DNA of 64,000 nucleotides, taken from Marsupella aquatica. Lineage: Eukaryota > Plantae > Marchantiophyta. The notes below the pieces were generated by a model, which saw only the letters and a list, made by a program, of their open reading frames with translations, searched no databases and was not told where the DNA came from. The stretch's first letter is position 1; each line of letters opens with the position of its first letter. The position numbers and the translations under genes were made by a program. Below, one piece after another: positions 13,167-49,139 of the stretch. The stretch lies in the NCBI GenBank assembly GCA_973895155.1, contig OZ316899.1, forward strand, positions 13,333,934 through 13,397,933, written 5' to 3'.

Positions 13167-13171
13167 CTTTA

Positions 13172-20951: not shown

Positions 20952-21003
20952 TTTTCCCCTTCACAAGGAGCTAAGGAACGAGCACTCCGCTGATCCACTC
21001 TTT

Positions 21004-24301: not shown

Positions 24302-26332
24302 CCAAGTCTCTGCCTCCACCTCCCAAGGATGAACCCACCATCGTCTTTTCGCTGCTGGCAAAGAACTCCTTGGTGACATGTTCAGCTTGCACAACAAATC
24401 CTTTGCTTCCTGCAAACCTTCCTTTAGAGCATCAACAACCAGCTCATTAGTCTGAACTGTAGAGTAATCAAATAAATTTGGAGCTTGTTTTCCTTCTTCA
24501 AGAGGATGTAAAGTTGCCCAAACATGATCCTGTTTATCATGTGATCGACGTATCTTCAATCCCTTTGGTCCATACTCTAATCCAGCTAGTCAATTAAGTC
24601 CCACTGCACTGTCCAGTAGAGATCCAAAGTCATAATTTCTCTCATGGCCACTCATGCCACCTACCTTGCTGAAAAATATCTCACAATAATCTGATCCCAG
24701 CAAGTGAAATGGAACTTGCAGATATGGGAACTCGTCCCGAAAGGCACAGATTAACAATACTACAAAATGACAAGACATGTTGATATCATGGAAAGCCTGC
24801 ACAAAAATCATGTTCTTATTTGTGATAGATCCAGCATTCCTTGTCACAGAATGATCACCATACCTCAACCATAGCCTCCACAATTGGAAGAACCAAGATA
24901 CTTTGATGCCAAGACAACACGGGTTCTTAGGTCATGCTTAACAAAGAAGAAAATATCTATGTAGTCTGCACAAACCTCCAAGTATATCATGGTCCCAAAG
25001 CTTCTGTCATGACAAACATCTTGTCGCTCATACATATGCTGCAGGCAGGCCTGCACTCTCCTGGAAGCTATTCGTTGTGGGCCAGCCTAGTTTTGTCATC
25101 TTGTCCTATTCACATCATCCCAATGCAAACCATGCTCATGAATTGCATAATGGTTATAAACAGATGTGAAATATGACAAAGATGCATGCTGATCACCAAG
25201 AACTAACATAGCAGACACTCGGTCCAATGGGTTAATTGCCTTCTTGCCATTGTGAGGTGGGTCTTGGTCTCCAAAACCATATAGATCTCCATTCGGAAGT
25301 ATGGACACTGAGTATTGCCACCCAACCCATCCCACACTGTACCTAGGAAAGGAACCATTCACAACAATATAATCTTCCATCATCAATTTCTTGTGACAAG
25401 CATCACCATCACTAGCATGGCCCAACAAAGGACCAACACTATCTCTGCAATGTGTGTCCCACATGGACTTTAGCTGCACCCAATGCTCTCTTACCCAGGT
25501 AGCTTTAAACTTGTTACATGTTGGTAGAACACACAATGCCAATTTAGGCATCTTTGCATGCAAAGGATTGACAATGATTACTCTAGCATACATGCCTTTG
25601 GCATACTGCTCAAAAGTACTTACAATCTTGTCATACCCTTCAGTACCTGCTCCAACCAGTACTTCCAAGCCAAAAGAACATGTGTGCTCTTCTAAGGGGC
25701 CACAGAAACCAATGAGGGTGTCATATTTAGCTTCCCATCTGTCACACACAATACAATACTGACATTAGCTCATGACTTGCAGACTCACCCAACACATTCA
25801 AAAGAAGAAGCTAATTTACGGCAGAGACAAAAACACAAACTTGGGTCTTTCTTTTATCCTTGTTTCATCCTCAACAAACATTACTGGTACATCTCCTGAA
25901 ATTCCAAGTGACTGCTTTGATGCACATAGTACTCTGCACACCTCCTGGAATATCTCTTTGCGGATGCCAAGTCTAAAGGGTGGTAGTTTTTCTCTGTCAC
26001 GTTTCAAGGTCTTCAGACTTGGACCACCTAGGTTTGCCTGGAAACAATGGGCCATTTGTCTACCTCCAAACTGGAACATGGCTTGGGAAAAGGCCTTGGT
26101 TCTCTTACTATAACGATAACCCTTAGCAACTCTCTGCAAGTTCTTGGCTACATCTGTCAAGAAATCCCACAACCCTTCCTTGCCACCAAAAGCACCACAC
26201 TTATGTCCATTCACTATATTCCTCAAAAAAAGTCTTAAATCTTTCCTATCATGGGCTACTCCTAATAAATCTTCTAGCTTCTTTCACCTAACACTCAGGG
26301 CACAAATTTTTTGAGCCTGTTGTGCCAACAGC
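24302..26332 (-). pseudogene. P-like transposase catalytic core
   Basis: Motifs VEDETRIK, HASDGD, DQDPPHNGKK (DxxH) and GSDYCEIFFS match the P/THAP9-type RNase H core. A GT-AG intron is likely at 25739-25840. Several stops and frameshifts. Confidence 0.75.
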
Positions 26333-27187
26333 CACTAGAAGAATCCGAGGTGAACTGAGACCGCAATATATGACTCATTTTGGCTCATGTGACTTCATTG
26401 TGACTCAACGTGACTTGACCCACGCTGTGACCCTTGGAGTTGCAAAAGTTGAGACCAAAAAATGGAAGTCACTATTGATACTGGGCTTTGCAACTTGCTT
26501 GATACCCATTTGTGACTGATCTGTGACTTTATTGTGGAGTCTAGCCTTGTTTCGACGTGACTGCAATATGACTTCAGCGAGTCACATCGTAAGTCACATA
26601 CATGACTTACCCGCATTCAACAACGACTAGCGTGTGACTATTTAGTGTCACAGGAGAGACCAATGGAGACCCTGGCCCGCGTCACACAACAGAACCATTT
26701 GGGACTCTATATACTCATGTTTATAACTAATAAGGTTCACATGCAAGTTATAACCATGACTAATGAACACAGAGGGACAGTTCATAAGGAGAGAGAGCAC
26801 TCGACATTACAATACATAGAAACCTGATGTTCTAACTTTAGAAATATAACACATTGAATACAAGAAATGAACATAGCATGAATGACATCCACATGAAACA
26901 AAGCATCATATAAGCAGATCCTACATAAAACATTCATAAGAATTAAACACAATCACAATCTTGCTAAAAAATGAAGATCATTTGAATTCCAATGGAATAG
27001 TTTACAATGTGATCAATGTAATTTAGACAAAACAGGAACTCATAATTGATGACTGTAGGATGAGATAACTGAAAGCACATGCATGATACTATGAATCTCC
27101 AAGAGGACATGATTCTTGTACTGCTTCTTGACATCTAAAATCTACATAACATGACTCACACTACAAACAAATAATGGCATGACATTG

Positions 27188-30100
27188 TTATGGATCCTCT
27201 ATGAACTTGCTTGGCCATAATACCAAAGAACCTGCAGCATCTCCAAGTGTCTTTTGAGGAGGATCATCATTTGTGTTTGGAATGGGAAGGACAGCTTTAG
27301 GTTTCACTAGTAATGTGACTAACACTACTGAATAACCTGGGGGAATCCTCTTGCCATGGAACGTTGTGGAACCAACCTGCACTCTGGCAAATCCTACTCG
27401 TGTTCCACTCTCATCAACAGCTAACAAGCCACTTTGTCCCTCAGCATTAGGTGCTTTCCCCACTTCCACCTTAGATCTTTCTGCCAGCACTATTCTTGGA
27501 GGTTTGTATGAAACCTTTGACGTGGCTCTGCTCCCACCAGCAGACTTGCTTCGTGTGCGCATGCTTCCTCTCTTCACAGTAGTGAAGCTAGGCTCAGTAG
27601 GTTCCTCTATTAGGACTGTCACAGTAGCAGGTTCATCACCTGGGAGTGTCATACCAACTAACTCTTTGGTTGGATTTATCTCAACAAGAGGCACACCTGT
27701 CATTGAGAATGATACATTCTGCAAATCATTTATATCTGCAATGGAGTCAAGATCTACATAGCATGAATCTGGCTCAATGGTATCATTGTCATGCTTGCTG
27801 ATATCCTCATTTGCCCCAACATTGATATCATCCACTCCCTTGCCAATGTCATCCTCATCCAAACATGGTTGACTGCCCTCTGTCAAACAAGTTGCTTGTA
27901 CAGACTGCAACTTTGTTGCCTCTAAATTACAGCGAGTATTTGCCAGGTTCTCATACTTCTTCTCTGTAGCACCTGTCTTATTCTCTATGGACACAACAAC
28001 CACAATATATGTTACTGGAAATAACACATTCAACAAACAATGTCAATTCAAACTATACATTTAATAATCATATCCCACACAGTTGTAAAGGCCTTACCTT
28101 CAAGCCTACATGTCGTTGGCATGCCAGAAGAGTGCATCGACTTTGCCACCTCAAGTGGTGATGGTGGAACTCCTGCAGAATTGGAATCAATTTTATCTCT
28201 CACCGACACAACAGCTTCCATTAATGTCTTGAAGTTCACATGGAACAAGTCAGTCAATGAATTCAAACGTTCATTGATCTCTGGAAGACATGTTTCGACA
28301 GCCTTCAAACGACCACTTATCTCTGTAAGTGAAGATCCACCTCCCTACATGACACAGGGGTATAGGTTCAATCACTCCATATGAAATGTTGGGCAATATA
28401 TGCACAATCAATGTTATATACAGTGTACACCTGAAATTCAACGCAGGTCATTCAATTACCAATCAGAACTCATATAACTTACATGCTTGGAGGATTCAGA
28501 TGCACCCTCTTGAGCCCGGGTGTTCACAATTTCAGCCCTCAACTCTTCTTTTGAAGGGCTTTGCCCCAATTGGGCTTTCTGCACATGCATGGCAAACACA
28601 AGTTATCGATCAATATTCAGGGAACGTACACTAAAAAACAAAGTTTACATGTATGGGTTTACACTAAAAAATAGTATATAGTGTAGCATAAATTACATAG
28701 CTAGGCCATTCATTCTTACCAAACGTTTAGCTGTCGGTGCAGTGCCGGTCCTTCCTGTCAGATTAGGGTTCTGAACACTCAACCTGGCCTCGGTCATCTG
28801 TGAACTCTTCTTTTTTGAAGCATCTGTTACAAAATAAGCTACTAACCTTGCCCACACTTTATCATCACAACTGGCTGGTGGAGGCATATCTGGCTTCTCC
28901 CCACCTTCCTTCCAAGCCTTATGCATTCTCCACCTCTCTTGCTTGATAATTTTACCTGCTGTACTCTCTAGGCAACCTATGTCCACGCCATCATCACTGC
29001 CCACATAATTCCATTTGGTAGCAACATTTTCACATACAGTCTTCCAATCTTTTGGATGCTGTTTTTTAAAATTAATAACACTCACATCTAACCAACGCAA
29101 TACTTCAGCTTTCAAATCAGCATGCCATCGGTTCTTGCGAGGACACTCAGCATCCACCCATTGTCTCTCATTCAACTTTACGTTCCCTTTCTTTGTCACC
29201 TCCCCTCGTGCACTGCTCTCGGTAGTACTGGGCGTTGTATTGGCCACCCCTTCATTCACCCTACCTGGGGTTCTGAAGCCACCTGGGAAAATACAATGCC
29301 ATTCATGCTTGAGAACTACATATAGCAGAATGGATGACGACAACATTCAATGCTTCACTTCAAGAAAAATTCTTCAAACATACATACCTGTAGCTCTGCC
29401 TGTAGATGCCTGTGCATGGACTGCACTCTGAAATTGTTGCGACCCTGGACCACCTGTCCAGCCTAGTACAGGGGCCGGATGATGTCACTTTCTAGGTATG
29501 TGTGTGAAAACATATGTACTGAAAACTAAGTACAAACTGTAGGAAAACAACTGAACATTCACCGACATACCTGTCCCCCTTCCGTGCTGCATCTGCATAG
29601 GGGCATTAGTGAATACTTGAGTCGATGGTTCGACTGTCCAACCTGCACACATACATTTTCTATCATTATACATGTGCAGAGTCCCCCCCACGTGAATGGA
29701 CTCCACATATAATGAGTTCTTCCATTGCTGACAAGATCAGACATTACCTGCTCCTCTTCCAGAGTTTGTAGGTACTGAATTTTGATATCCCTGCCAATTA
29801 CCTTCACCACCTTCCCAACCTTGTTCATTCCATGACCCACCACCATCCTCCCAACCTGGTTCAACCCATGTCTGTCCTTGTGGACATTGGAACTGATCAT
29901 TACTAGCATTTGCCCAATCAGGTTGGGCAGAATCTGCATGCAATGGCAGGTGGACAGAATTTCATGTTGTCTGAATCCAATACATCCCAAACAATGTCAA
30001 AAATTGATATGCAGTCTGAAATTCAGGAGTGCCATGCCTTCACAAAGAACTGGCATATAGATATATACTCACATCCCCATGGTTGAGGTGGACGTCCATA

Positions 30101-30893
30101 CCCACGAGATTGTGGGTTTGGACCTGCTCTGCCTCTACCACGGGCATAACCTAGAGCTTGCCCCCTGCCATAGTATTGGGCACCAGCCTGGGATCTACCA
30201 CTACTACCACCTCGCCAACCTTGATCAGAGGTCAGCCCCCCTGCTGGTATGGTGCATGCACAGGCTTCGAAGGCAAAACAGAACTGGCAGGACGCTGCAT
30301 CACATCACCAACTACAATGTCAGGAACTAAGCAAGGTACATATGTGTAGTACTGAACATATGAAACCTCTAAACAAGAGTTTTTAACTCAAAACCTTGTT
30401 GGGAAAACTACTTACATGTTTCTTTTGGGGCTGCTCTGCAATGTATTCATCTTCATAACCCCCATCCTCATCCATTTCCTCTGGAAAATACTCATCATCT
30501 GCATCTTCTTGTCTAGTGTCTGCACCCACCTGTGCAGCATCAATGTCATCTCCACATTCTGCCATTGTAGGTACGACCTTCTTGCTCAACCTGTCACTCC
30601 GACGCATAGGCCCAGAGATAGTGCTGGTCACCCTTCTTGCGTACTCCTTTTGTTTCTTTGAAAATGCTGTGGCTCTGCGACATTCCAATATGAGAATACA
30701 GTCACAATTTCAGTGCCACATTGAACTATTCATGTCACACAAACTCAGCGGAGGGGTGTAGTTGAGAATCGTTCCCTTACAATTCAGCCACATCCTTTTC
30801 CAGATCCAGTTCTGCAATTTTGGCTTTCACGTATGCTCGTTGTTCCATAGCTTTCCTTTCATACTCACACATCTCTGTGTCACTCTGTTCCAT
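27188..30893 (-). CDS. TnpA/ORF2-like CACTA protein (multi-exon; exon boundaries approximate)
   Basis: Exon ORFs with GT-AG junctions downstream of TnpD. The segment PPPASCDDKVWARLVAYF..KKSSQMTEAR..NLTGRTG is Ptta/En/Spm-like, and the C-terminal FHGKRIPPGYSVV..LPIP..TLGDAAGSLVLWP domain is typical. Confidence 0.75.
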
Positions 30894-31049
30894 CCTACTG
30901 GACCACAAAAACATGTCATCTATGGTCACCCCGTATAACACAATGCAACCACAATCACCAGGCATCCATCCATACATCTGTGTTGCTTCAGAATTACTTT
31001 ATTACACATCCTTCCCCTCACTAATGTCCATGCAAACAATTCACATTAC

Positions 31050-34000
31050 TCATAGCACAGGCACACTGTTGGCATCTGCATCTCTGAATTCGCCTCCTTC
31101 AGCAAATGCATCTACCCTTGTCACAGGAATGAAGTCCCCGCTATCATGAACTATAGGCACTTGGTTTGAACGCCGACGATCAAAGGCACTATGAGAGTGT
31201 AAATGAAACTCAAGGTTTGATCCTTCCATCCGACGTTGCCTGGCCTGTTTATGACACACTACACGCCAACCTGGGGAGTCTTCCACATCCAGGAAGAAAG
31301 CTTGCTCCACCTGACTAGGAAACACAAATGGCTCAGACTATTCAGGCAATTTCCCTCTGAAATTGGCCAGCAAGAAACCATTGTTGTCTCTCTTCATGGT
31401 AGCCCTGTTACCAAGCCAATCCTGCCGCACCCATGAACCTTTCATAAGAATCACAGGACTGGACACCGCCCCATAGTCCAGAGCCCATATGTCAACTAAT
31501 TCTCCCACATATCCCATCTCCATCCAGGCCCTGTCGTGATTGTGGCTCTGTTGCTCAAATACAGTGATGAGCCCGCAGTCATTCGTCACCCTGTAGGCAC
31601 TGTCACCATCCTTCACTCGGAAGTGATTCCCATATGCTCTCATCCGTTTGTAAGTCTTCACTTTCAGGCTAGGGGCATTAGACAGTAGGTAAACATCTGC
31701 ATCCATGTCTGGGTGGGTCTCGTGATGCTCTCTAATTGCCACTCTGATCCACTCCATGAAACCTGGAAAAGTTGTTCCTGCAGTGGGATGGGCCGCCTTC
31801 AATGACTCATACTCCCTGAACGAACAACCACACAGCATTAGCTTGGGTAAACATGAACAGGCTGAAGGAGAAAACCACACGAACACAACATTTAAGCTCA
31901 TGAACTGGATTATAGCACATGTATGCACTCACTGTATCCAGGGTTCCATCACCACAGTGTTGTGCAATACAAAGTCATGTGCCAAGTCTCTCATAGATAT
32001 GGTCAGGTTCTTTGTGGTTGCAGCCGCTTCCAGTACTTCACCTATCACCCCTTCCTCCTCATCAGAATTCCACACCCTGGTCTTCACATGCTCATATTGT
32101 GCTATGTATTCGGTCAGAAATCCCAGAGTCTCATCCTTGATGTAACCTTTAGCCATGCTTGCTTCAGGTTTGTAATATGTTCTCACGTGACCTTTGAGTA
32201 GCTTCATGTACCGTTCCAAAGGGTACAACCAACGAGCACTCACAGGCCCAAATTGGTGTACCTCTTCCACAACATGGACAAGTAGGTGGGTCATGACATC
32301 AAAAAATGCGGGAGGAAAATAAATCTCCAGGTCACACAACACCTGAGCGACATCTTCTGTCAGTTGTGGGAAGTGTGTTTCATCCCAAACCTTCACACAA
32401 ATACGACGAAACACATCACTGAGTCGCATGATCACAGTACGAACAGGCTTCTGCAACAGGCCCCTCAGGCATAAAGGCAACACCTGTTGCATCAACATAT
32501 GGTAGTCATGGCTTTTCATACTACCAAGCTTTCTAGTCATGATATGCTTCTTGAAAGCACTGCCATAGTTTGAAGGAACCTTCAAAGAACTCAACCTCTG
32601 CACAAATAGTTCCCACTCTGTGTCTGTCAGAACATAGGGCGCTTGGTACTTCAAGAGCACATCAGCTTTGTGGGCATGTGGCCTCAACCAAAGATGGGGT
32701 TTCATTCCCCTCTGTTCAAGATCCAATCTCACTGAACCAGTGTCTTTCTCTCCACACAAGAATCTGAGTAGACTCTCACAAATATTCTTTTCAATGTGCA
32801 TAACATCAATGTTATGTTTGCTTGGCTCAAACTCCTGCATCGTTGCAATGCAAAAGCGTCAGGAAATGCCTCAAGTTTAGTCTCTCTCTTCGAAATGAAT
32901 GCACATGCTCTGAACCAAAACATGTATCCCAATTAGCATCAACTCCAAGAGGCTTACCCTCCAGTACTTGAGCTCCAAGTCCAATATGCTCAATCTTTTT
33001 ACACCATATCGCTTTATTGGATCACTCACTCCATCTTCCCTGCCCCCTCGTTTGATATAGTCATCCCTCAGTGCTCCCCACTGCCTGATCTCCTCTTTGG
33101 TCACTCGTGCCGGGGGTCCACGTTGCTCAATCTCATTGCCAAAGTGTGCAATCAGTGCCTGTCTTTCTCTGTAAGGGTGATCTGCCTTCAGAAAACGACG
33201 ATGGCCCATGTATATCACTTTCTGCAGGGCTCTGGAGTACTCACTGGTGACATTGCGCCCACAGATAGTACAAGCACAATATCCTTTTGTTGTTTGGCCT
33301 GATATCATCCCATGGGCTGGGTAGTCAGCTATAGTCAGAATGACAATGGCTCTAAGGATGAATGGGTTTAACCTCCCAAGCCTCTGTAGGACATCATATG
33401 TGAGAACTCCTTCCTCCCAAAGCTTTCTCAATTCCTCCACTAGGGGAGCCAGAAACACATCTATGTTGGTAGATACAGCACTGTCTGGCCCTGGTATCAG
33501 TAGGACCATCAGAACAAAAAATCGCTTTGTAGTCATCCAAGGAGGAAGGTTATAATTCAAAATAGTTACAGGCCAGCACGAAAATTTGTTGTTCTTGTCT
33601 CCAAATGGGTTTACCCCATCCAATGACAGCCCAAGTCTGACATTCCTCGGCTCAGCAGCAAATTCGGGATACATCTCATCTATGAGTTTCCATTGCCTTG
33701 AATCTGCAGCATGTCGTTGTAGCCCATCATCACTTTTCTTGTCAGTTGCCCAAGTCATCATCTCCGAGATGGCACGGCTTCTGAACATCCGCTGAAGTCT
33801 GGGAATGAGTGGAAAATGACGAAGTACCTTGGCGGGAACCATAGACTTTCCTGAGTTCCGATACCTGTGCTTCCCACACTTAGGGCATGTCAACGATTCT
33901 TTATACTCCTTTCTGAAAAGAACATGCCCATCAGGACAGGCATGGATCGAATCATAGTTCAATCCAAGATTAGATATGCATCTTTTTGCCTCGTACATGT

Positions 34001-34781
34001 TCTTGGGCAAAATATTACCATCTGGTAGCACAGTTGTTCGCAAGAATGCCAACAACTCAGAAACCAAAACGTTGGGGACATTGTGGTTGCCGCAAATGTT
34101 CAGGAACATGATGACAAATCCCAGTTTAGAACATTTGCTACCGGGGTACAAAGACTTCCTGCCTTCCTGTATTTGCAGGGGAGAGCCAAACATCCCATCA
34201 TGCCCAGGGGTTTCCTGCCCTATCTCAAACTCATCAAGAGGCTCTTCGACAGGGGGCACACTTGCATCTGCAACCGTATCCTCTTCATTGTCCAGCCCAT
34301 CATGAAATGCATCCAAGTCTTGGAAGATGTCTCTCACCATCTCTTCCACATGAATTCCTTCGTCACGTGGTGCTGCCTGAGCACCATCCCGTTGGAGAGC
34401 TGACAACCCACAGAGACCAGCTACAACATTTTCAAATGCACCAAGCAGAACCTCACTTGCCCGTCTTGCAGCATTGGCAGCATCAAATTCTAACCTCCAC
34501 TCCTCGTCGGAAGAATCTTCCTCTGCAGGATCATTCCAAACTCGATGTCGTGGATCTCTTCCATGAACCGCGATATGCCGCCAAACCTCATTCAGACCCC
34601 TGGTACGGGATCCTTGGCAGATTGCACAAGGACATCTCATCCTACTGGCTCCTGAAAGTCTGGTTCGTAACCTTTCACGCTGCCAAAGCTTATTATCATG
34701 GCGTGATATCCTTGTGGGATGATGCAAAGGCAGTGCCTGTGCCCTGGGCTGGGTCTGGGGAGGGTGGTGACCAGGGTGCAT
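31050..34781 (-). pseudogene. CACTA TnpD/Tnp2 transposase; one in-frame TAG at 31338-31340
   Basis: Transposase_21-type motifs (LRHFPLIPRLQR, LGLSLDGVNPF, DYPAHG, IDVMHIEKN, MKSHDYH, HLLVH, WLYPLERY). Introns at about 32835-32957 and 31816-31932. Confidence 0.95.
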
Positions 34782-35214
34782 TGTAACAGGCTGGGAGCTC
34801 TGCAGTCATGGACAGCAGTGAACAAGGATGCCTAATGGTGGTATTTGTGTTCCATATATCCCTGACTGTATCTGCCAAAAGAGTTAACATAACGTGTACT
34901 AAATTCTCACAAACCCTAAACCACCCCAAAAGAAAAAAACAGGTTCGCAAGTAGTGTACCTATTGTCAAGTGAATGACACAAAATTCCTAAATGTTGGAG
35001 GGTGTCACCACCTCCTCCGCTGTCCTCAAATGTACCGCCTCTGCATGTACGTTTATAGTGACACCCCCAGGCAGCAGGAAACAACAATCCGCCAACAGTA
35101 AAATAAGCCCAACTGCCACCAACCATAACAAGGTACATTAGTTCAAAGATCACATTTATTTCAATGATCTGATTTATACAAAAAAACTTGTGTCCAAACT
35201 GATGCTACTACTCC

Positions 35215-36093
35215 TCACTCTGATTCAGAATCGCTAATGACCCATTCCTCACTTGTTGTCTCATAGTCCTCTCTGTAAGGATCCTGACCCTTCCGTGGCC
35301 AGGCCTCAAAAAGATCATAGTCCATTGGGTTTTGACGCTTCCCAGCTGCTACTGATTCCACAAGCCAAGCATATGAAACCACAAACACATTATGGGACAT
35401 GACATAAAAGCGAATGTCTCCCTTCCCAAACTTGCGGCAGGCTTTGGGATATGACTTAGTAATGACATGAGTGGTGTCCTCTGTTATATTCTCCTCCACT
35501 GTCCCACCTAGGTCAAGCAATGTGGACTTGTACACTTTGCACTTAACCTCTCCAATTCCCGCCTCCACAAATACCATGCTCAGCCCTTTCAGAATGGGGG
35601 TTGGTTGCTTCGTCTCCTCAGCCAACATACTCTTCAGCCTTGTAGAGCTCTGTCCTTTGTTGAGTACAGGTCCATATTGGAGATCAGCAAGCCGTGCCTT
35701 TGCTTCCCAGACTTCTTGTTCAGCCCAAGCTGATGCAGTAGCTTCTTCATCCTCCCACAACTCATATTGCTCAGTATCCTGTACAATCTTATGTGCTATG
35801 GAATCTGTGATCCAAGAGGCCTCAACTACTTTTAGGCCTTGCTTAGTAATTGCAGAATTCATGTAGGACCATGACCACTTCTTTATCACTGATAGCCATG
35901 TCCCTGCAACAACATGTGTAGTCTCTGGAGTGATGTCCTGAACTACAGTGCCATGGAGCTCAGAGAATCGTTTCTGTACAGTTGGCCAATGCACTTTGGT
36001 CAACCCATGCTGGCCATGGACCAAAATCGCTCTGACCCCTGTAAACACTGCTGGGTGGTCACACTTTCTACGTTTACCAGGCTCCATGTACAC
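35215..36093 (-). CDS. Tandem BRCT-domain protein (DNA polymerase lambda-type BRCT x2)
   Basis: Intact 292-aa ORF with two repeats of F/L-x-G...GG/GTV...ITxxTTHV...VV-x3-W-x2-[DE]S..Y. The first true ATG is at 36085-36087. Confidence 0.8.
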   Translation of the reverse strand: MYMEPGKRRKCDHPAVFTGVRAILVHGQHGLTKVHWPTVQKRFSELHGTVVQDITPETTHVVAGTWLSVIKKWSWSYMNSAITKQGLKVVEASWITDSIAHKIVQDTEQYELWEDEEATASAWAEQEVWEAKARLADLQYGPVLNKGQSSTRLKSMLAEETKQPTPILKGLSMVFVEAGIGEVKCKVYKSTLLDLGGTVEENITEDTTHVITKSYPKACRKFGKGDIRFYVMSHNVFVVSYAWLVESVAAGKRQNPMDYDLFEAWPRKGQDPYREDYETTSEEWVISDSESE

Positions 36094-36679
36094 ACACCCT
36101 ACGTGATGACAGTGAATTTTGGAAGAATGGGTTCACCTGACAATACAAGGACAACAAAATTCCTGCTTTTTGAGTTGATCTGGCCCACTGGTGCTCAGGT
36201 CCGATTTTGATAGGTACAAGGGATATGTGAACAATACGTACTAGGCACCTGCACGGATGCAGGACATTGTTTGAATATATACTACAAAATCCATATCCGT
36301 GGTGAAATGAAGTGCAACCAACTTGTCATGGCACATACATATTTTGTTGTAAAGGAGGATACATTCAATGACAAACTTATAGGGCAATTTGATTAATTGC
36401 ATGCCTGATAATTTATACGCTTACAACTTAGAAGTCCTGTTTTAATTTAGCAGTCTGATGAAAGTGTTTATGAAAATGACCACTCAGCCTAAATACTTCC
36501 AAGAAGGCTTGTAAGGATAAGTTTGTATAGGCATGTACCCAGCCACTGACGCCAGAGCACAAGATAAGTGTTGCCTATATAAACTCGCCTACCCAACTCC
36601 TTTTCAAAATTGGAATCTTTGCAATCTCAAAAAATAGTACATCCACATCAGGTGCACTGTGCATGTACAATGTTCAGCT

Positions 36680-37360
36680 TCATAGCCAAGATATGTGATC
36701 TCTCACAGGAGTGCGCGAGGTAGGATCAATGGCATGGCGATGACAATAAAATATCCATCGATCAACACCATGTGCAGAGTGATCATAGATTTCTCTGTCA
36801 CAAGCATAACCCTCTGCTTGATGATCTTTCAGGCAATGATAGTGCCACATAGTGGGACACCTAGCACAGTGGACTATGTCAGTCCAGTAGTCATCATCAT
36901 GCTCACCACATGCCTTGCACCTATGAAGTGGGCAAGCTGTGGCATGAGCAGGCAAACACTCAAAACAGAAAAATCTCACACAAAAACGGTCTGGACATTT
37001 CCTAACATCTGCTGCAGCATCAACAGAGCCCTCATAGGACCCCAACTTCCTACACTATGCACACTTAGCCTGCTTCTCCAAACAATCAGTGCACATCCAG
37101 TCTCCCTGGTGTGTTGACGGGAGGCCCACCCCTGGACAGTTGTTTTCTGCAGCAAGGTCAGACTCCGGGTTGAGGTGGAAATGCCTCATGCAAGGGCCCT
37201 CACAAATGACCAGGCCCCCACCATCGTCACAAATGGCACAACAATGAGCTGCCTTCTGGAAAATCTGACTTGCAGAGAAGTTAGTAGCATCTGCCCCAAG
37301 TACACCTGTGTTTCTCACCTCTGTCACACGCTTTTTGGCTTGAATTTTAGGCCGTGCCAT
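36680..37360 (-). pseudogene. EDM2-like PHD-finger-only protein with H3-like N-terminus; one in-frame TAG at 37055-37057
   Basis: CAICDDGGGLVICEGPCMRHFH..., CPLHRCKAC..CARCPTMWHYHCL and FYCHRHAIDPTSRTPVRDHI closely follow the EDM2 PHD cluster. The two ORFs are in one frame. Confidence 0.85.
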
Positions 37361-37371
37361 GCCTGCGCATG

Positions 37372-37515
37372 AGATAGACTCTACAATTTAGCAGACTGCA
37401 CAGAAAGTAAAATATATTTAGCATTTAAGGTACAAAGGCATTTAGATAGACTCTACAATTTAGCAGACTGCACAGAAAGTAAAATATATTTAGCATTTAA
37501 GGTACAAAGGCATTT
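37372..37515. repeat. Perfect 72-bp tandem duplication
   Basis: AGATAGACTCTACAATTTAGC...AAAGGCATTT occurs twice. Confidence 0.95.
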
Positions 37516-38130
37516 GCTACTGCAATGAATTGGAATGGCCACACAAGGATGCAGAGCACACATACTTTTGGTATGTTGAGCCCACACACAAAACTGATCC
37601 CCTAATACAATTTCTCCACCAACACCTCAATTTTAATTGTGGCTATGATTCACCAAAGGAGATCTGCAACAACATTTCATGCATTTGAATCACATACAAT
37701 AGTCGTGACATGTAAAACAGGCATTCTTCGAAGAGGATTGGTATGAAGCAGTGTCATAAGGGTTGAAATTTATACATCCTAAATAGGTTATGATAGTGGC
37801 TGAGACAAATAAGTGAGGCATAAATCATTTTGCATATTATCACATGGCCCATTAATTCATTCAACGTTGCAATGTTCACCAGGTTAAAGCAGTCATGAAA
37901 GCAGTCTTTCAATAGAGACTTTTATGCGAGTTTGCTAGCCTCTTAAATTAGGATATTTTGCTTAGTGCAGGCATAATAGGATATAAGTTATGTACTGTTG
38001 ACCCTAAACCCTGGACCCAAAATTGCTCATACATCAAAATTTTAAGTAAATATCCTCTGTGTTGAAGTCAGAGTGTTAAGCTATAGGTCAATGGTATCTG
38101 GTCTGTGCATGCGGTGTGACAAGTGGTCCT

Positions 38131-38580
38131 CTAGAGCATGTGATCCAAACATGTGTAGACACCAAAGTCACCGGTGGTGGGGTCTGGGAGGGCAGGACAA
38201 GTGACATCACCAGGCACACTGCAGGATGGCGAGTGGTTCCAGATGATACATTGTGCTCTGTGCAAAAATCGGCATCCAAGAGAACGGTCATCCAACTCTG
38301 GGCCAGAAGCCCTACAGGCAGGACAGTCATATTGGCAACTGTGTACACACCCTTGGCACCTAATTTGTGGCGGGTCATGTACAAGAGACACAAATACCAA
38401 GGATGTCGGGAAGGGTACTGAAGCAGGTAGAGGCCGGCTGTAGTTGTTCCTGGAAACAACAGGGTACTCAAAGTACCATGCAGACTGGGCTGGAAGGATC
38501 CCAAGTCTGACATACTCAAGGCGCAACATCTCTGCCTTGCGTGCAAGTCGCACATGTTCAGCGTTGCGGGTCCTCACCAT
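38131..38580 (-). CDS. Small Cys/His-rich hypothetical protein
   Basis: 149-aa ATG-initiated ORF, co-oriented with the other CACTA genes, with CxxC pairs (CQGC, CPAC). No family recognised. Confidence 0.4.
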   Translation of the reverse strand: MVRTRNAEHVRLARKAEMLRLEYVRLGILPAQSAWYFEYPVVSRNNYSRPLPASVPFPTSLVFVSLVHDPPQIRCQGCVHSCQYDCPACRASGPELDDRSLGCRFLHRAQCIIWNHSPSCSVPGDVTCPALPDPTTGDFGVYTCLDHML

Positions 38581-39588
38581 AAGTGTTGCTTTCGTTGTGA
38601 TGTCCTCTGTTCACGTCCTTTGATGAGCAAGGTGAGCAGGAGGTCGACTTGCCTCGCCAACAGCAACCACCTAAACTAATCAGTTCCCACTCATTGTCTT
38701 GGTTCCAACTACAGGTCATAGTATACACATAGCATGAAACGTGCATAGTACATATTTGATTCTGAGTTTATGAGTTTCCTAAGACAAAGAGCTTGGTGAT
38801 AAACCCATATTCTCGACGGACATGTATATCAATCATATTAAACTCCTGTTTTTTCATCCAGAAAGACCGAAAGTCTCACCTTGCAGGTTGCAGCAGAGAG
38901 AAAATTCACTGGTTGTCGTGTTGTGCAAGTGAACCTCCACTGATGCCCCGGTGTAGCCCCTCAGATGCAGGTGACACTTACCAACTCCCAAGTTGCCTGG
39001 TCTAACAGAAAATGCTTATATCTTCAGAACTTTATAGAGCAAGTACATGATCACATACTTCTGGATCTATTCATATTTGGAACTCTTGCCAACTACAACT
39101 CCCATTATGCACAAGCTCACATCAACAGAGAAAGATACAGAATGCATACTTACTATGGCTCTAAGCACCTTCACTACCTTGTTGAACCCAGTCCTGAAGT
39201 CTTTTCAGCGTGTTTGTTGTGCTGTCTCCTTTGGCACCCAACACCTTAGTCCTTGATGTAACAGAATGCGATTTTACAAGTTAGATGCTTTGGAACCTTC
39301 TATGGTCTTAGCTGAATTGATGTCATCGTAAGTGGTGAAAGACAAGGAAGACGAAAGCTGGTTGAAGAGCTGTGGACAACACACTAGCATGAAGTGCTTC
39401 AACCAATCCACTGCCAAACGGAACTCTTACACAGTCACATTCTTTTAGTAAACAAAAACTCAGTCAAACTTCAGAATCAAAGTACAGACTCTGAAGGACC
39501 AAAGGAGGATGTTGTGAGTTTCTCTGTTGTTTAATGTGTTACCCTTCTAGTTTCGAAGTTAGCAAATGCTGAATAATGTGTCTACCAG

Positions 39589-39931
39589 ATCTTCGAAAAG
39601 AAGCCCACCACAATTAAGAACTTCGGTATCTGGGTCCACGTATCAGAGTCGTACAGGTTATCACAACATGTACAAGGAATATTGTGATACCACAAGAAAC
39701 GGAGCTGTAGAGCAGATGTATGATGAGATGGCTTCTTGTCATAGAGTTCGGTTCCCTTGCATCCAGATCATGAAGACTACGACAGTCCCTGTCTCTCTGT
39801 GCAAGCGAGAAAGTACCAAGCAGTTCCATGATTCAAAGATCAAGTTCCCCTTGACGTACTGCAAGATTCAACCTCCATTGCGAAAGCTAAAGAAGACTTA
39901 CAAGGCCACCAAGCCCAACACAATTGTTTGA
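39589..39931 (+). pseudogene. RPL18a: Captured last exon of 60S ribosomal protein L18a (eL20)
   Basis: CAG|ATC TTC GAA AAG.. encodes [15 protein letters not shown]; after a frameshift it continues [44 protein letters not shown]. Confidence 0.93.
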
Positions 39932-40213
39932 GTAGTGCGGGTGCAGGTTCCCAATTTTGAGACAATTTGGCTCATTTTATGTCCCGAGGGAATCCTGGAG
40001 TTTATGTATTGAGTTTCTAGGTGAAGATGCTTAATATAAGGAAATTCAATTATCACTTCGTTCCCAACTTCTATTAATTGAAAATACACAAGCTGGAAGC
40101 AAGAAGACAAGCCACAATCTAGCATCTTAGCCAAACACAATCGTCCCGACAAAGCAAAACTCAGCTGGACAGAAGTCACTCGGATCCACAAAAAATTGAA
40201 GATTCACCTCCAA

Positions 40214-41552
40214 GCCGGAGGCTGATCACTTCAGTACAGCAGCTTCTAGACGGAACAAACTCTGCTCAGCCCCACAGAAACACAAATGTTAAGGCTCAGC
40301 AACAATAGACAAATTCACTAGCCAGAGGGAGTGAAAAGCAAATGAGTACCAAGCCAACCAACTAAGACTGACTATGAAATGCAAGTGACGTCATTACAAC
40401 CAAAACAATACAACAAAGCACTTAGGCAACATTAATACAAAATTGTAGAGGAATTATATCATGCGATAGATAGTACTCGGTTCTACCTGAGGTGTACAGT
40501 CATACTCCCCTCAGGTAGAATGTGTATGCAATTACATACACATGACGATCCCCAAGAAAGCAGACAACAGTTCCTAGCAGACAACAGTTCTTGCTACGTG
40601 TCTCAGGCTGATTTTTACTTTCCAGACTTGAGAGTTGTGAAGGTAGTCTTAGTAACTTTCCTCTGACTCGATTTGGGAGCATTTGACCTATCTGCTAGCT
40701 TGTAGTTAGCTTCATGATGTCTGTACACTTTGGTGTCCGAGCCGAGCACTGATTCTTCCTCTCCTCTATTTTAGCTTCGTGATATCTGTACACGTTGGTG
40801 TCCGGGCTCTGATTCTACCTCTCCTCTGTTTTTGCATCGTGATAGGCTTCGATCACAGTAGCGTATTGGAGCATGGAAATTTGAGGTCCATTTCAAGGCA
40901 GCGGGAATAAGTACATTGATCAACTGGAGACCAGAAATGCGCATATGTGAATGTCATACCTTTCAGGCGGAAGTCGTAGGTAGCAGGTAGCAGGCGTGAA
41001 CTTGCAAGCAGCAACTTGCGCTCTGTTGCCCCCTGTAGCTTACTAAAACAACACTCCACTGAGAAGCAATGACAACGGATTGGAGCTCCTCCCCAATTAA
41101 TATAGTCTCCAACCAATCACGTTCATGATCTGAGGTGAGACATGACATACAATAATCGCTGATGCAGAGATCTAAGAATTGTCTCAATCCAAGGAACAGA
41201 ACATCTCACGACATCACGGACATTTTACAGTAACAAAATGCAACACCCACCCTATGCATCTATAACATTGAGTACAAACATTCATGGATTGCAAAATTAC
41301 TCTTCATGCGTCACCTTCAGGTCAAGTCGTAGCTCTAGCCACAACTCATAGGTCGTAGCTCCAAGACATAGCTGCAACCACGGCTCACAAGTCCAGCTCC
41401 CCTGTCAGCTCACATGAATAGCGCCTCCCTTCGCTGCACTCCATGCATCTGCTGCTAGTTGCAACACAAACCGGAGGCCGATCACTTCAGTACAGCAGCT
41501 TCTGGATGGAACAAACTCTGCTCAGCCCCACAGAAACACAAATGTTAAGGCT
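40214..41552. repeat. Dispersed ~83-bp direct duplication (40214-40298 and 41471-41552) in the CACTA cargo region
   Basis: CCGGAGGCyGATCACTTCAGTACAGCAGC...AATGTTAAGGCTC appears twice. Confidence 0.85.
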
Positions 41553-44500
41553 CCAAGTCAGAGCTCACAAACAGAAACTCAGATAAATAACATTCAAAAT
41601 CTGTCCAGGTTTGTGCAAAGTGTACATATTCATTCTTCTGGAATGAACACGCAATCCATAAGAACGAAAGTAGGAAGGCAAGCGCACGGGCCACCGAGAA
41701 AAGTAAAGGATGCATGTGTTAGTGGGGAGGGATCTTAGCAAAAACAGGGGAAAGCAAGGGAACTTGCTGCTAAAATCAGCTGAACGATTGCACGGTTCCT
41801 ATAAATTTAGTGGACCTTAAGGCCGTCTGTTCACCCCCCCACCCCACCGCCAGAGCACGGGGCACAAGGCATGTTCTGATACAGGGAGGAGCGAAACAGT
41901 CATGTCAAGCAAGAAGTGTGGAGAGACCAATCAGTAAGCAAAAATAGGGGAGAACATACATACATTAGCAGCAGCAGGAAACAAGAAAGATGATTTCGGG
42001 TGGCATCTTAGGGTCGGGGACACCACTGCAACACCGGGACTTAGGATATGACTAAATGTAAGCTACACAGTCCTCCGTTCTCTTCAACAATTACCTTAAA
42101 CAATGAAGTAATCTAAATGGATGTTGATCAAAATCAATTGCAACTACGCAGCCCTTGGTTCTACTGCGGCTACAACAGCCAAGAGAACAGCTCAGAGCCT
42201 TGATTGAAGACTGTGCTCTCAAACTAAGCTAAAGACAAAGAGATATAGAGAGAGACAAAAAAAAGTTGACAGGAGTGCAAAGCGAGAACCCACTCCCGTT
42301 CTTTCAACACCCTAAACCCCGCTGCCTGACTTAATTTGCATGGCGACAGAAGCAGTCATTGAAAACTTACCTTGTGATGACAAAAACGCTCTGGGATGGG
42401 CTGCTACTCCCAGGACTATCCCACACTCTTAGCGCCCCGTTGCTATTGAGCCACACTTCAGTTTAGCCGCGCACGCTCAATCTTTGTCATTCAGCTAAGT
42501 TCAGCTCCGCAGGGCCTGGACTCACTCTCATCCAATTTCAGTTGATCAGTATTGCAGCTCTCTGCTCCCAAGAACAGGTCCTTGCGTTTGTTGAGCGCCT
42601 CTATAGACTCACTTACCTCCAAAAACACTGAAAGTTTTTATCTGCATTACAATGAGCTCTAAAGACCAAAAACATTCCCGCCTAAACTGAAATAGAGTCC
42701 GCAACTACAAGCTTTGCAGCTCAACTCTCTGAGCTCTCCCAGCTCAAAGGTATCAGCATGTTGTACCCACACTTGATCGAACGCTCTTCCAATGCTCGCT
42801 AGGTTGATCTTCCAATGCTCACGGTAAGCTATGGACACCAAGCTCAGAAGACCGTGGGGAGACAACTAAACTTGCAGCGACGTAGGACCGCAAAGATAGG
42901 GATTGCAGCTTTACCTGGGGCGATGCAGCACCAAGCCGTGCTGCGTAGCAATCCGTAGCAAGAATAGTCCAAATGCAAGCCAAGTGACAAGCTCCTGGTT
43001 CTCAATCCCAAGTTGCAACTGAATATCAAATTCACTCTCCTAGCTTCAAGGAATGAGTGTCTATTGAATGTTGAATTAAATTCTCGCAAACTCTTCACAG
43101 TGCTTCCCGTAGTGCCTGTTGTCGATGCAACACACAATCACTCTTGATGCCTACTACTCACATTCCCTTTTCTCAATGCAACACACACTCGCTCTTCTTG
43201 CCTCCTACTACTCACATTGCCCAACGATCAATGAAAGCAGAAGGACAGGACAGGGAGAACCCTTTCGCAACTCAGGACGGCAAGGCTAGGAGTGTATACA
43301 CATCGGGCCGCAATAAGGTCCAACCTCAACTTCAAAAAGTGCAACGCCAAAACTGGAAGCTGGGTCCAATAACAGTCGTTAGTAGGATGTCGTAAAACCC
43401 CTAAAGTTGCAGCATTGCCATACTCTACTTCCTCACCCGGTAGCGCTAGGCATTCGACCTCTCTCTTCCAAAGACCTCGATGACCTCCCACCAGCTCAAT
43501 GACGATGGCACGCAAAGCTTCCGTTTGGCTTGCAAACCCTTGAGGCAAACCAACTCCCTTGGAGACCCTTCCCAAAACCCTGTGCGGGAGAGAAATGCCG
43601 AACGTGAAGACCACTCACTTGTCTTCCCATTGAAGTGGAGACATTAGTTCACAAAAGAGACACAAAAGTCTATGATTTGCCTAATTTGTTTTTTCCTTTG
43701 AAACCAAAGGACTTACGCAATAGTTATATGTGGGGTGAGTGATTAGTCACAACTTTGAACCACCCCCTTTGGTGAAAATGTGGCCAAATATTCAGGTATG
43801 ACCCCACATTACCATTATGAAGTACACTTTTTTAGGGTTGGGGTAGTGAAGAGCTGATCATATATATTTAAGTTGGACATTTAAGTTGGACTTATATTGG
43901 TCCTGAAGCATGCATTGGTTGTCATATATGAAGGGGGTCGGGGAAACATGGTGGTTTCTGGGGCATGGCAATAAGTAAACCCAACCTACATATGTGAGGC
44001 TGAAATTGGGTGATAATTAAGCACGCCTTTGGCACGACCAGAAGACGTCGATAGAAAAATTAGAGATTGACTACAAAAAGCATTAAGTTAGGTTAGCAAG
44101 CTTTGACAAATCCTTTTTGCAGTTGAATGGGGCTGGGGCGCTTCATGGTGTCTAGATGGGGGTAGGAATAATGATGGAATACTCAGTAATGGCATGGTTT
44201 AAAATGGTATGACCAAACTAGAATTAAATCTATGTGGAATGACATATGGTGTATCCAAAATCATATGTATTGGGTTAGATCTCATACTTTAAGGTTGAAG
44301 GGCTCAAATGTTGTGCTCTCATAAGTTGTACTCTAATGTAGAGTCGCTTGTATGACTTCAACCTAATTGCCTTAACTGAGTTATAGTTACAACTTCCCTA
44401 AAAGTTGTAAACATGACTCCTCAAAACTTCACCAAAACTCAGTCAAGAAGGTGTGACTAACATGACACCAATAACCTTGGAGTCGCTGTTTCATGAAGGT

Positions 44501-44553
44501 CTCGGACAAGTCACATTCTTTGTGGTCTCAGAAAGGGTGGGTTTCTTCTAGTG

Positions 44554-46144
44554 AGCCAACGTTGTTTCCTAAAGCGAGTGGTGAGGTTACCAACATGTTC
44601 CCTCAATTCAGTTTTGGTCAAGTATGCCAACCTCATCCCACCATGTGTAGTTCTTTCTCCTCTATGCACTAAAGCTTCCGCTTCCCTGTGCACCCAACCA
44701 CGAAAATCATCTTCACGTTTTATAGAATCACATAGAGTGCAAGTGAGGTTCTGAAAACCACCTCCATTAATGGACACCCTGTGCCTAAAACAACCTTGTA
44801 TATGTACAACTGACTGGCTAGTTACATTGAAAACCTCAGCACAGGCTGTACGATCACAGTCCCAGATATTTCCTCCCTCCTGATTATCAAGTATGCCCTT
44901 CACTTCCATAGAATCCCCTGTCCACTTGACCTCTGACTCCCACATGCCCCAACAAAGCAAATTGAGACTTGGCTCAATAGAGGAATACCCACCTCTGCCT
45001 GAACTGCTCCCTGCAGTAGAGCTGTCCTCTCTAAAGAAATTCAAAATAGAATTTTGAGATGGAAACAGATCATGAGCATCAGGCTTCCTTGGTCTTCCCT
45101 TCTTCCCTGCCTTCAGTGCAGCCTGGGTACTGGTTACAACGCTCTCAAGTGCATCCATATGATCTCGACTCACCAGGTGTTGTCTTAAATTGTGTTCCAA
45201 AATTGGATTTCTTAGGGCACATGTCAGTATGTAGCTTGCCACAGACTGTACATTTGACCTTAAACAAGAATGACCTTTGTGCAAATGTTGGACAGTGGGA
45301 GATGGTGTGATAGTAAACACTTCTACCACCCCACCTACCTCTGCATTCAACTTTCCCACTATTTCCACCCCAGCCCCTATTTGCATACTATGATCAAACA
45401 ATGGCTGCTGTATAGTGTTAGCAGCTATCACCAGAGCTCCAAGTAAACCCCTTCACTTACACCAGTTCTCCTTGTGTTTAGAGTTGGTCAGGTGCTTTGT
45501 CTTGAAATTGCTAAAGCAATTTGCAATGGACTTGAGCACCTGTGAATTGGCTGCATTCCCATAAGTCTCCCTACACTCTAAGCACTCTAGATGCCCTCAA
45601 AACTCCCCTCCCTCATCCCACGTCCGCACTCTCCACTTGTGGTCACCGAAGCCCTTCTGGTTTACCCACAAACGTAACTTCAACCACTCATCATTCCAGG
45701 TCTTTGATGCAACCTCAGACATGAGGTGAGACTCAAAGGAGCTTGTCACAGGCTGTACAGTAGCCTGTACTGGCACCCCTTGAGTTTGTCCTTGAGGCAA
45801 TGGAGGCATGCCTGCCACATTGGACACAGTGGCAGCAGATGAATGAGAGGAACCAATAGTGACCCTCTCAGGAGGCAAGGCAAGTGAGGGTAACTGTGCA
45901 ATCACATAAACTGTCCCTTGAAGTTCAGTCACCCCAACTGTCTTCTCTGAAAAGCGTCGGACTCAACCAAGCAACCTCTCAACCCAAAAATCAAAGTCAA
46001 ACTCTACTGCACCAACACATTTGGTATGGAAGTCTGCCAAAGTCTGCCCTTCTTTGAAGGACATGACACAGATTGGCATATCAGGCTTTCCTCCTCCTCA
46101 CCCTTTTCTACCAATCTGACAGAGCTCATGCCTAGGTTTGCCAT
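44554..46144 (-). pseudogene. P-like transposase N-terminal part with two C2H2-like zinc fingers
   Basis: Joins in frame across the CACTA TSD (KQRWL|LAQQAQKIC). Contains CLEC..KHLTNSKH and a frameshifted CTVC..QHLVSRDH. Confidence 0.7.
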
Positions 46145-46474: not shown

Positions 46475-49139
46475 TATAATTTAGGTTGTCTTATGGGTCC
46501 ACTCCAAAAAAGGCTGACGTTATAAGATGTGTCTAGTCATGGGTACTAGGGATATCAGAACCGTCTGGAATGACATGGCGATTACAGTAAATCATGCGCC
46601 ACTGTCCAACATCCCAAGTGTCTTGGCCCCTCACCCCTCTCCTCAAGTGCCTGTCTACTGTTGGTCCTTCATCACGACACCATGCACGAGGGCATCTACG
46701 ACATTGGACAAAATCCCAAATGCCCTCCCGATACTCCTTACAGACCTCATAGTAAGGAGCTTTAAGTTGTTGTTGCTAAGTTGCATTCTTAGAGTTGCGG
46801 TCTGTGTTGATTTGCATTGCTGCGTCGTGGAGAATTGACTATGCAATCAACAACCAGATGTTGTTGTTGACAAATTTTGTGCAAGCCAGGTGATGGTGTT
46901 TGCTGCTATTTGGTGAAGGAAAATTAGTCAGGCGTATGACTCCTTGTGGTCTTGATTGAAGCGGTTCTGGTTGAGGAGCCAACAATTGAATGTGTTTAAA
47001 ATTTGTGTAGGATGCAATTTTGATTTGCCTCAAGTTCTATGCTGATGGATATTGTGTTTCTACTTAGAAAACAATGTTGAATGTTGGTGCATTGTATTGT
47101 TGGCAAATAGGGCATAGAGGTAATGACAAAATAGGGAATAGTACTTTGACCATAATTTCCCTCATATTTAGTGCATGGCTTGAGTGAGTATAGAGCTCAG
47201 TGCAACCCACAGTTTGTGAGATCTTAGCTAGAGTGGGAAGATAGCCCACGACCCACAGTTGGTGAGGTCTTTGTTTGAGTGAGTATAGAGCTCACAATCC
47301 ACAGTTATGAGGTCTTACTTTGATTGGGAAGAGATCCCACAACTCATTGTCAGCAAGGTCCTGGAAGGCGGATAGTGCTAGCAAAGCTAGAAGGACCAGA
47401 CAAAACCACCATTGGAGAAGAGGGACTTCAGCCGGTCAATGATGAATGACCCGTAGGAGTAAGTCCCAATATCAGGAATGCACCCAATATTGGGAATGTA
47501 AATACTATTGAGAAAGTACCCAATTTAGATATTAGGCCCAATATTTGCAACCAGACCAATATGAATAATCTGGCCGTTGGAAACAGTGACCTTGGTGGAG
47601 AAGCTGAAGAGACTAGTTAAGATTCAGTTATCCTAGGAGGCGTGTCCCAAATGTGACAACAACAACACCAAGTGGATGCTGACAATCTCAAGGATAAGGA
47701 GGCCACCAATGCCGAGCAAACAGGGGGTTATGATCTCCTGTCAAGAGTAGGGAAAGTGATCAATGAGTTATGCAACATGCAATGACTCTGAGGAATGCAG
47801 TTAGGATCCAGTTGCCACAGTTGATCCACCTCCTTCAAAGCTTTTCAATTGCTACAAACGAACTACTGTTCTGAAGCCAACCTGCCAATTTCAAGGCGGT
47901 CTATGTAATAGAAGAAAAGCGGCCAAAGTTCAAAAGCAACAACCGGGAAGGGAATACAATCTGACATTTCAATCTAATTGCTTCCGACATAGACACAAAA
48001 TCAAATGTTTGACAGTTTGACAAAAGCAAGATGCACATACATTCCACAACAAGGCTCGGATGAAAAATTTGGCGAGAATGAATGTTAGAGCAACAAGCAT
48101 TAAGGCAACAATGCTGGAGCACACTACAAAGCAAAGCATTCTAGCAGTGATTATGCATGCAGCAAAACAGCAACATGCAACTTCTTCACTGCCGCGGTAG
48201 AGACTACATAGACAGACAATCAGCGCATGCAAGAAAGAGAGAGGTCATTCCAGAATAGAAACAAAACAAAAGAGAATAGAGTCCAGTCTTGAGAGAGCTA
48301 AAATTACACTTTTGCGCTCCAAATTTGATTTTAATCAATTAATCATAATACAGAAAATTTTAATATTAAGTACATTTGAAATAAAATAGATAAGTCACAT
48401 GTACATGTATCATTTGGTCAAATACTCATGATTAAATTCAAAGTGAGATTAATCATCTCATTTATCATAGCATATATTCAAGGTTGGCTAGCCATAATCT
48501 CGATCCTACTTCAATGGTCAAGCTTATGTAAAGTCCAAAGTAGTTCTATCACCTGCCCAAATAGAATAAATGATTGCATGACTTCAATCTTGTGTCCTAC
48601 AATGTACAGAAACATAATGATTAATCATCTAAAAATTCTATGCCTCCATGAACATGTCTACATGACTTATTTAAACAAGTGAGTCGTTCTCCATTTGGGT
48701 TGTATAGTCTGTCACAAGTGCAAGTGTCTTTGGGATAACGGTTTTTAAACTTAGAGGTGAGCTCCCTAGTCTTTAGAACTTCCCAAACAAATTGGCGAGG
48801 ATTCTCTCTAAAGGGACCCGAATAAGACTCGCCCAAACAATTGTTGACCACACTTTTTATATCATCTTTGGTCAGGTTCTCAAATGTAGGGTAGGATTGT
48901 ACCATACCCCTCACGTCCCAACATATCTCATCTACAGTGACATCCAAGATGGTATAGTCAATCTTTGAATGCCAAATCTTACTTCCCCACCTATGGGAAA
49001 GTAAAGCATAGATTGCAACATTACTTTCACGGTCATCATTTATATGAAGAAATGGCCAAAGTGTTGAGAGGTGGAGATAATTCTTAGGAGAGAAAATGTC
49101 AAGTACACCAACAATCAAGGTTCATCCATTCATGGGGGG

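Follow-up and report, generated by a model that had tools for sequence, protein, structure and literature searches.

Imitation of the N-terminus of histone H3 has been described among human proteins by the H3 N-terminal mimicry (H3TM) rule, in which a small residue (A, G, S, C, T, P or V) follows the initiator Met, with Arg at position 2 and Lys at position 4 (M-Z-R-x-K); 48 N-terminal cases were found among 20,996 human proteins (Chen et al. 2021, PMC8166343). Histone mimics named elsewhere, such as influenza NS1 and SARS-CoV-2 ORF8, are viral or cancer proteins (PMC13165374). The unmodified H3 end itself is read by AIRE PHD1 and by the UHRF1 PHD finger (PMC2261226, PMC3214078): in AIRE, D312 binds H3 R2 and D297 binds H3 K4 (PMC2261226), and in UHRF1 the reading is centred on R2 and ignores the state of K4 (PMC3214078). 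Among plant PHD proteins, Arabidopsis EDM2 binds H3K9me2 and affects transposon silencing (PMC7529245).

In the present study we describe an H3-like tail at the start of a PHD gene in the liverwort Marsupella aquatica. The window, by which we mean the whole stretch analysed, comprises 64,000 nucleotides of contig OZ316899.1 (GenBank assembly GCA_973895155.1, forward-strand positions 13,333,934 to 13,397,933), and positions are counted from its first nucleotide. Judged from sequence comparison, the motif is genuine, and a PHD family conserves it selectively; the member of that family described here is carried by a transposon, and the function of the motif is putative.

The tail, the PHD gene and the CACTA element

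The start codon and the tail, M-ARPKIQAKK, occupy 37331..37360 on the minus strand, with mature residues 1-9 at 37357-37331; the minus-strand translation starting at 37360 is MARPKIQAKKRVT. Compared with H3 residues 1-9, taken as ARTKQTARK as quoted in the sequence-only reading, A1, R2, K4, A7 and K9 are identical and position 8 carries Lys for Arg, which confirms the identities and the basic position 8 claimed in that reading. In a shuffling test on the 40-residue leader, uncorrected for the match having been picked beforehand, the score was reached in 0.22% of 20,000 trials. Among the window's 1,763 10-codon stretches that start with ATG and contain no stop, five fit M-Z-R-x-K, the finding included, and two fit M-Z-R-x-K-x-x-A-[RK], namely the finding and one stretch elsewhere. 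One tail match in the window, taken alone, is suggestive only and proves little, so that the weight of the argument lies on conservation among homologs.

The tail opens a 226-codon EDM2/NSD-type triple-PHD gene, which is broken in the window copy by an in-frame TAG at codon 102 (37055..37057, minus strand), a Gln in the intact relative P0001. The 5' part (37055..37360, minus strand; 101 codons plus the stop) encodes the tail, a variable linker and PHD1, the latter matching Pfam PHD-1st_NSD above the cut-off (E 4.5e-07). The 3' part (36680..37054, minus strand; 124 codons) continues in the same frame with PHD2 and a PHD-variant finger, its matches to PHDvar_NSD (E 4.8e-05) and PHD_NSD (E 7e-04) both being below the cut-off; beyond the TAG, 109 of the 124 codons are identical to P0001. 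Intact relatives measure 217-245 residues and end just past the PHD cassette. AlphaFold2 models of P0001 and of the window gene with the stop read through reached a mean pLDDT of 87.0 and 87.5, respectively, and the best matches in a fold search were the NSD2/NSD3 tandem fingers (PDB 4gng, 9gbf; Z 5.9, rmsd 2.6 over 84 residues, and Z 5.2, rmsd 2.6 over 75). Two and a half atypical PHD fingers, as in the EDM2 family, are thus present according to the Pfam matches to NSD-like PHD families and the NSD-type fold of the model, and the fusion of the tail to a PHD cassette stands on the same two grounds.

As it is written, the window copy would yield, barring read-through of the TAG, at most the tail and PHD1 (101 residues). 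In the 40 of 58 differences listed from four runs and three organisms, the stop codon shows no alternative base, and base 37051, close to it, differs in all covering contigs. The TAG may be common to many close copies, and a high-copy subfamily may encode only the tail and PHD1 or may be read through.

The gene lies within a CACTA transposon of 18.2 kb (26333..44553, minus strand), recognised by its ends, inverted repeat, target duplication and transposase domains. At one end an AGC target-site copy (26330-26332) adjoins the 11-bp terminal inverted repeat CACTAGAAGAA (26333-26343; together 26330..26343, plus strand), and at the other the repeat (44543-44553) is followed by the second AGC copy (44554-44556; together 44543..44556, minus strand); 26333/44553 is the only listed pair of ends with at least nine matching end bases and a duplication. 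In minus-strand order the element carries a Cys-rich ORF, the PHD gene, a BRCT gene, Transposase_21, DUF4218 and a weak Transposase_24. The BRCT-domain ORF (35215..36087, minus strand; 290 codons) contains two BRCT stretches (Pfam BRCT, E 1.5e-13), and is located between the PHD gene and the transposase, whose Transposase_21 part (32877..34781, minus strand; E 1.5e-70) and DUF4218 part (31929..32840, minus strand; E 2.3e-28) precede a TnpA-like Transposase_24 fragment (28693..29346, minus strand) with E 1.5e-04, below the curated cut-off. Terminal inverted repeats starting with CACTA, a 3-bp target duplication and a TnpD-type transposase (Transposase_21, DUF4218) were therefore all found, as expected of a CACTA element. 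Contigs cover coding and non-coding parts of the element alike and contain many variants, which fits a multi-copy DNA element. The Cys-rich ORF (38131..38580, minus strand; 149 codons) belongs to no family that we could match: there was no Pfam match at E 0.01, one match at chance level (E 0.096) and no usable Atlas match. It starts with MVRTR, as had been pointed out; this putative weaker H3 echo has Arg in place of Lys at position 4 and so falls outside the M-Z-R-x-K rule.

Several further features were observed in and around the element. Within the CACTA ends, and opposing the element genes, a degraded copy of ribosomal protein L18a is found at 39566-39931 (plus strand; Pfam E 4.2e-19), which may represent a captured or retro-inserted host fragment. 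On both flanks there are long open frames without Pfam matches (24593-26283 and 44514-45962, minus strand), possibly one older element hit by the CACTA insertion; in an empty-site reconstruction the flank frame runs 16 codons beyond the junction, against 14 with the element present. An inverted pair at 13368-13794 and 47370-47807, 75% alike over 442 bp, was considered as the element ends, a view given up when the CACTA ends were identified. Outside the element we observed a Gypsy-type retroelement with long direct repeats and pol on the minus strand (16753-24295), a Copia-type element with 191-bp terminal repeats 99% identical and an unbroken 1,558-codon ORF (7650-13171), a third, inverted copy of 155 bp of the Copia-type terminal repeat (478-632), and arrays of ~20-bp units sharing an AAGGACT..AGTCC core, partly palindromic (54212-54713 and 59371-59884).

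Conservation in short and long relatives

Protein searches yielded a family of short PHD proteins that are 28-79% identical to P0001. The alignment used below was made without H3 as a guide and has 19 rows, one for the window and 18 for short homologs; it derives from a 23-row alignment from which P0063 and P0064, near copies of P0009, and P0025 and P0046, with a missing or unalignable leader, were dropped. The transposon context is established for the window copy, and the homologs are known as protein sequences. In these rows position 1 is A in 10, S in 5 and T in 2, R2 and K4 occur in 17 each, A7 in 14, and position 8 is basic in 13 (K in 8, R in 5). The linker, in columns 10-26, has no residue shared by more than 7 of the 19 rows. 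K9 is present in 7 rows, with 6 gaps, and at positions 3 and 6, where H3 has Thr, Pro and Lys respectively are the most frequent. The sequence-only reading held that loss of the H3 register among homologs would speak against it; the register is kept at R2, K4, A7 and the basic position 8, so that no such loss was found there, and it is weak at K9. In the 22 family members the full motif including K9 occurs in 5 and M-Z-R-x-K, with the Met directly ahead, in 10. Examples of homolog tails are ARTKVQSSK (P0005), TRTKQKSKM (P0006), ARSKQKAKG (P0029), ARPKKMAKK (P0007) and SRPKVVARK (P0010). The motif is lost in two otherwise intact relatives, P0002 by a deletion and P0003 by a change of K4 to E, and in 7 of the 19 rows (P0008, P0009, P0010, P0011, P0013, P0017 and P0022) it stands 2-8 residues behind the likely start, so that the free A1 assumed in the sequence-only reading cannot be extended to every homolog.

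The order of the residues was assessed by permutation. Over the 19 rows the H3 letter order tied for first, being reached by 2 of 22,680 permutations of its letters; with A1-R2 held fixed it was reached by 2 of 1,260, with the window and its two closest relatives removed by 3 of 22,680, and in each subgroup alone by 9 of 22,680. As the rows are kin, these ranks show a kept pattern and do not represent independent probabilities. Sibling copies of the gene, in assembled contigs from four runs (40 of 58 difference rows listed), give a second line of evidence: tail codons 1-10 show 6 silent rows and 3 replacement rows, with every replacement at position 6, which does not match H3, versus 1 silent and 13 replacement rows in linker codons 11-25 (Fisher p 0.005). 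Among the rows listed, R2, A7, K8 and K9 carry silent changes only. A protein search limited to proteins of 30-38 residues gave no match, and a metagenome scan with 276 candidate stretches gave one locus, an unrelated 2,925-codon remodeller-like ORF.

The short family forms one clade, 12 of 29 tree rows, with support of 100/100. A larger, quick and unrooted tree, built from 37 of 68 proteins and the window and leaving out short, frame-shifted, duplicate and unmatched rows, joined the short family with four liverwort proteins and one fragment (16 rows, SH-aLRT 95). P0001 and Marchantia MPTK1_1g03210 are 35% identical over 206 residues. A MAR[TV]xxxA start is found in 6 of 10 long non-EDM2 relatives, liverwort and algal, with the same PHD cassette (Riccia sorocarpa 2, Marchantia polymorpha 2, Calypogeia fissa 1 and Mesen1 1, the last label presumably denoting a zygnematophyte alga), whereas in the EDM2 clade 1 of 15 rows starts with MAR, and lacks A7; A1-R2-A7 thus travels with this PHD branch. 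K4 is absent from all six long MAR[TV]xxxA relatives. From these comparisons A1-R2-A7 is a feature that the short family has in common with a host branch, and K4 with the basic position 8 is the mark of the short family. In P0024, P0027, P0033, P0044, P0045 and P0051 the MAR[TV]xxxA start lies hundreds of residues ahead of the PHD cassette; Marchantia MPTK1_1g03210 and MPTK1_2g00350 are among these long proteins. It is possible that this long liverwort and algal start serves as an H3-like plug in the host, and our literature search found no report of such a MAR[TV]xxxA plug.

Candidate roles of the tail

The conserved N-terminal A-R-x-K-x-x-A-[KR] likely works as a built-in imitation of the H3 tail. 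The mechanism that we favour, with rather less than even confidence, is that this pseudo-ligand folds back and gates the protein's own PHD1. Removal of the Met would free Ala1, and Ala1 and Arg2 would dock in PHD1, which aligns to AIRE PHD1 with E 0.00089. The residue aligned with AIRE D312 is acidic in 18 of the 19 rows (17 Asp and, in the window, Glu, with Gln in the remaining row), whereas the position of D297 is His in 18 rows and Gln in one, and hence carries no K4-binding acid. Between the motif and the first zinc ligand there are 29-40 residues, unconserved in their mid-part, a length that should be sufficient for the tail to loop back. With the finger plugged, nucleosomes would be bound only at sites where genuine H3 tails displace the plug by competition or where host enzymes modify its K4, and the element's reader would thereby respond to the chromatin state, for targeting or for escape from silencing. 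Both AlphaFold2 models contain a short strand or bridge at tail residues 5-6, whose partner strand is unnamed, and the pLDDT over tail residues 1-10 is 66 and 55, compared with 47 over residues 11-20; the strand and the raised pLDDT are a weak hint of a docked tail. Fold searches gave no position for the tail, and a prediction of the complex between tail residues 1-30 and the PHD part of P0001, run without alignments, returned a score of 0.02 that holds no answer about an interface.

Several observations stand against such a plug. In the seven rows with an internal motif there is no free Ala1, yet R2, K4 and A7 persist; K4 is conserved though its D297-equivalent partner in PHD1 is His in 18 of 19 rows; and the motif is gone from P0002 and P0003. 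The start codon, moreover, is predicted from the DNA, where 3 of 13 strong donors have an in-frame ATG. Ala after Met is common in plant genes for reasons of start context.

A possible, if doubtful, second reading is that the tail is an H3 mimic directed at the host, luring or soaking up H3K4 writers, readers or WD40 co-repressors while the PHD cassette anchors the protein on chromatin. We place it close behind the plug because K4 is kept, in 17 of the 19 rows, without a partner in the protein's own finger, PHD1 lacking the usual K4-binding acid. K4 is also special to the short family, being missing from the six long MAR[TV]xxxA relatives, and the internal motif of the seven homologs would suit partners that need no free amine. 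Human M-Z-R-x-K proteins offer a precedent, as they are reported to bind PHD/Tudor readers when methylated and NuRD when unmethylated, although the same study saw no direct in vivo K4me3 on its mimics (PMC8166343). Against a host target, long relatives that share this cassette likewise start with A1-R2-A7, an indication that the partner lies within the protein. The more specific proposal of a decoy for K9 writers, also put forward in the sequence-only reading, has become doubtful: K9 is found in 7 of the 19 aligned rows and the full motif with K9 in 5 of 22 members, and the window has K8-K9 and not R8-K9. As a main role it was set aside, K9 being poorly kept.

We consider it unlikely that the likeness to H3 is incidental and that the tail is a basic arm for localisation or nucleic-acid binding, or a plain structural strand. 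The tail is certainly rich in Lys and Arg, Pro and Lys are more frequent at positions 3 and 6 than any other residue, in place of the Thr of H3, the motif persists where it is internal, and one chance M-Z-R-x-K-x-x-A-K start exists elsewhere in the window. The classical monopartite nuclear localisation signal follows the consensus K-[KR]-x-[KR]; this is missing from the window leader and present in 2 of 22 leaders, which speaks against the simple localisation signal once offered as an alternative. A basic arm would likewise leave unexplained why 14 of 19 rows have a non-basic Ala as residue 7 and why the H3 order, with A1-R2 fixed, still ranks in the top 2 of 1,260, and the long relatives keep A1-R2-A7 without a basic cluster.

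The remaining alternative concerns the start itself. A CAG resembling a splice acceptor (37363..37365, minus strand) lies 2 nt ahead of the ATG, and the genomic frame upstream runs for 9 codons without a Met, for which reasons an intron likely ends just before the ATG; this 5' intron end is a prediction. None of the splice joints listed from the sequencing runs fell at this acceptor, a result that carries no information about expression. A perfect 72-bp tandem duplication lies directly upstream of the acceptor, at 37372-37515, in the likely intron. Were the acceptor to join an upstream coding exon, the ATG would not be the start and the motif would be internal, with no free Ala1. The window, P0003 and P0005 all have Gly-Met ahead of the motif, as an AG|GC-ATG layout predicts, a fit that for the two homologs is inferred from protein letters, and of the 13 strong candidate donors in the element, 3 are preceded by an in-frame ATG. 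However, the strongest donor (42371) and the donor at 38880 have none, and the best phase-compatible donor within the Cys-rich ORF scores 6.0 of 8.5. The 10 of 22 members with Met directly ahead of Z-R-x-K include P0005 and P0029; in both, the gene call started upstream of that Met, which was therefore not imposed by the call. The BRCT gene has an acceptor-like site 11 nt ahead of its own ATG, as expected with a shared non-coding leader. A non-coding leader is thus the likelier arrangement, and a coding exon spliced onto the ATG appears improbable.

The gated PHD1 that we favour can be placed within a wider picture, which we offer as speculative: plant DNA transposons would carry a miniature "tail plus reader" protein, an EDM2-type PHD module plugged by its own H3-like tail, which host histone enzymes would modify so that it acts as a sensor or decoy of silencing, and this module would descend from the little-studied liverwort/algal A-R-[TV]-x-x-x-A PHD branch, sharpened by K4 and the basic position 8.

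Comparison with known systems

Documented histone mimics come from viruses and from host chromatin proteins (PMC13165374, PMC8166343), and none was found reported for a plant transposon in our search of open-access main text. Likewise, word searches of the main text of the transposon surveys PMC13547354 and PMC12973397 gave neither "PHD" nor a histone mimic. If the proposal is true, a transposon exploits the histone code itself, beyond DNA-sequence-specific anti-silencing. The protein, of 25 kDa and encoded by a single exon, combines an H3-like tail with H3-type fingers and is small enough for binding and methylation tests, and the comparison draws attention to liverwort host genes, so far unstudied, that share this N-terminal pattern.

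With viral mimics and VANDAL transposons the locus has in common that a selfish element copies H3 motifs or brings along accessory proteins acting on chromatin (PMC13165374, PMC12973397); for the VANDAL anti-silencing proteins, an H3 mimic and a PHD finger go unmentioned in the main text of PMC12973397. The NSD2/NSD3 PHD5-C5HCH tandem fingers (PDB 4gng, 9gbf) are the best fold matches, with middling Z and for the rear fingers only, but they sit in large SET methyltransferases for which no H3-like N-terminus was noted. EDM2 and EDM2-like proteins have the same atypical multi-PHD cassette, assigned through the Pfam NSD-like PHD families, whereas the protein described here is a cassette-only protein of 226 residues without the RFD, acidic, PGR or methyltransferase-like (ELP) parts, and falls in a separate clade (100/100), nearer to the long liverwort PHD proteins. 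With AIRE it shares the alignment of PHD1 and the acidic position that binds R2; since the K4-binding Asp is a His here, its reading of H3 is predicted to be nearer to the R2-centred mode of UHRF1. Finally, its M-A-R-P-K start obeys the M-Z-R-x-K rule of the H3TM proteins, and it differs from these in a likeness to the tail that extends to A7 and the basic position 8, and in being a plant protein, borne by a transposon and equipped with PHD fingers of its own.
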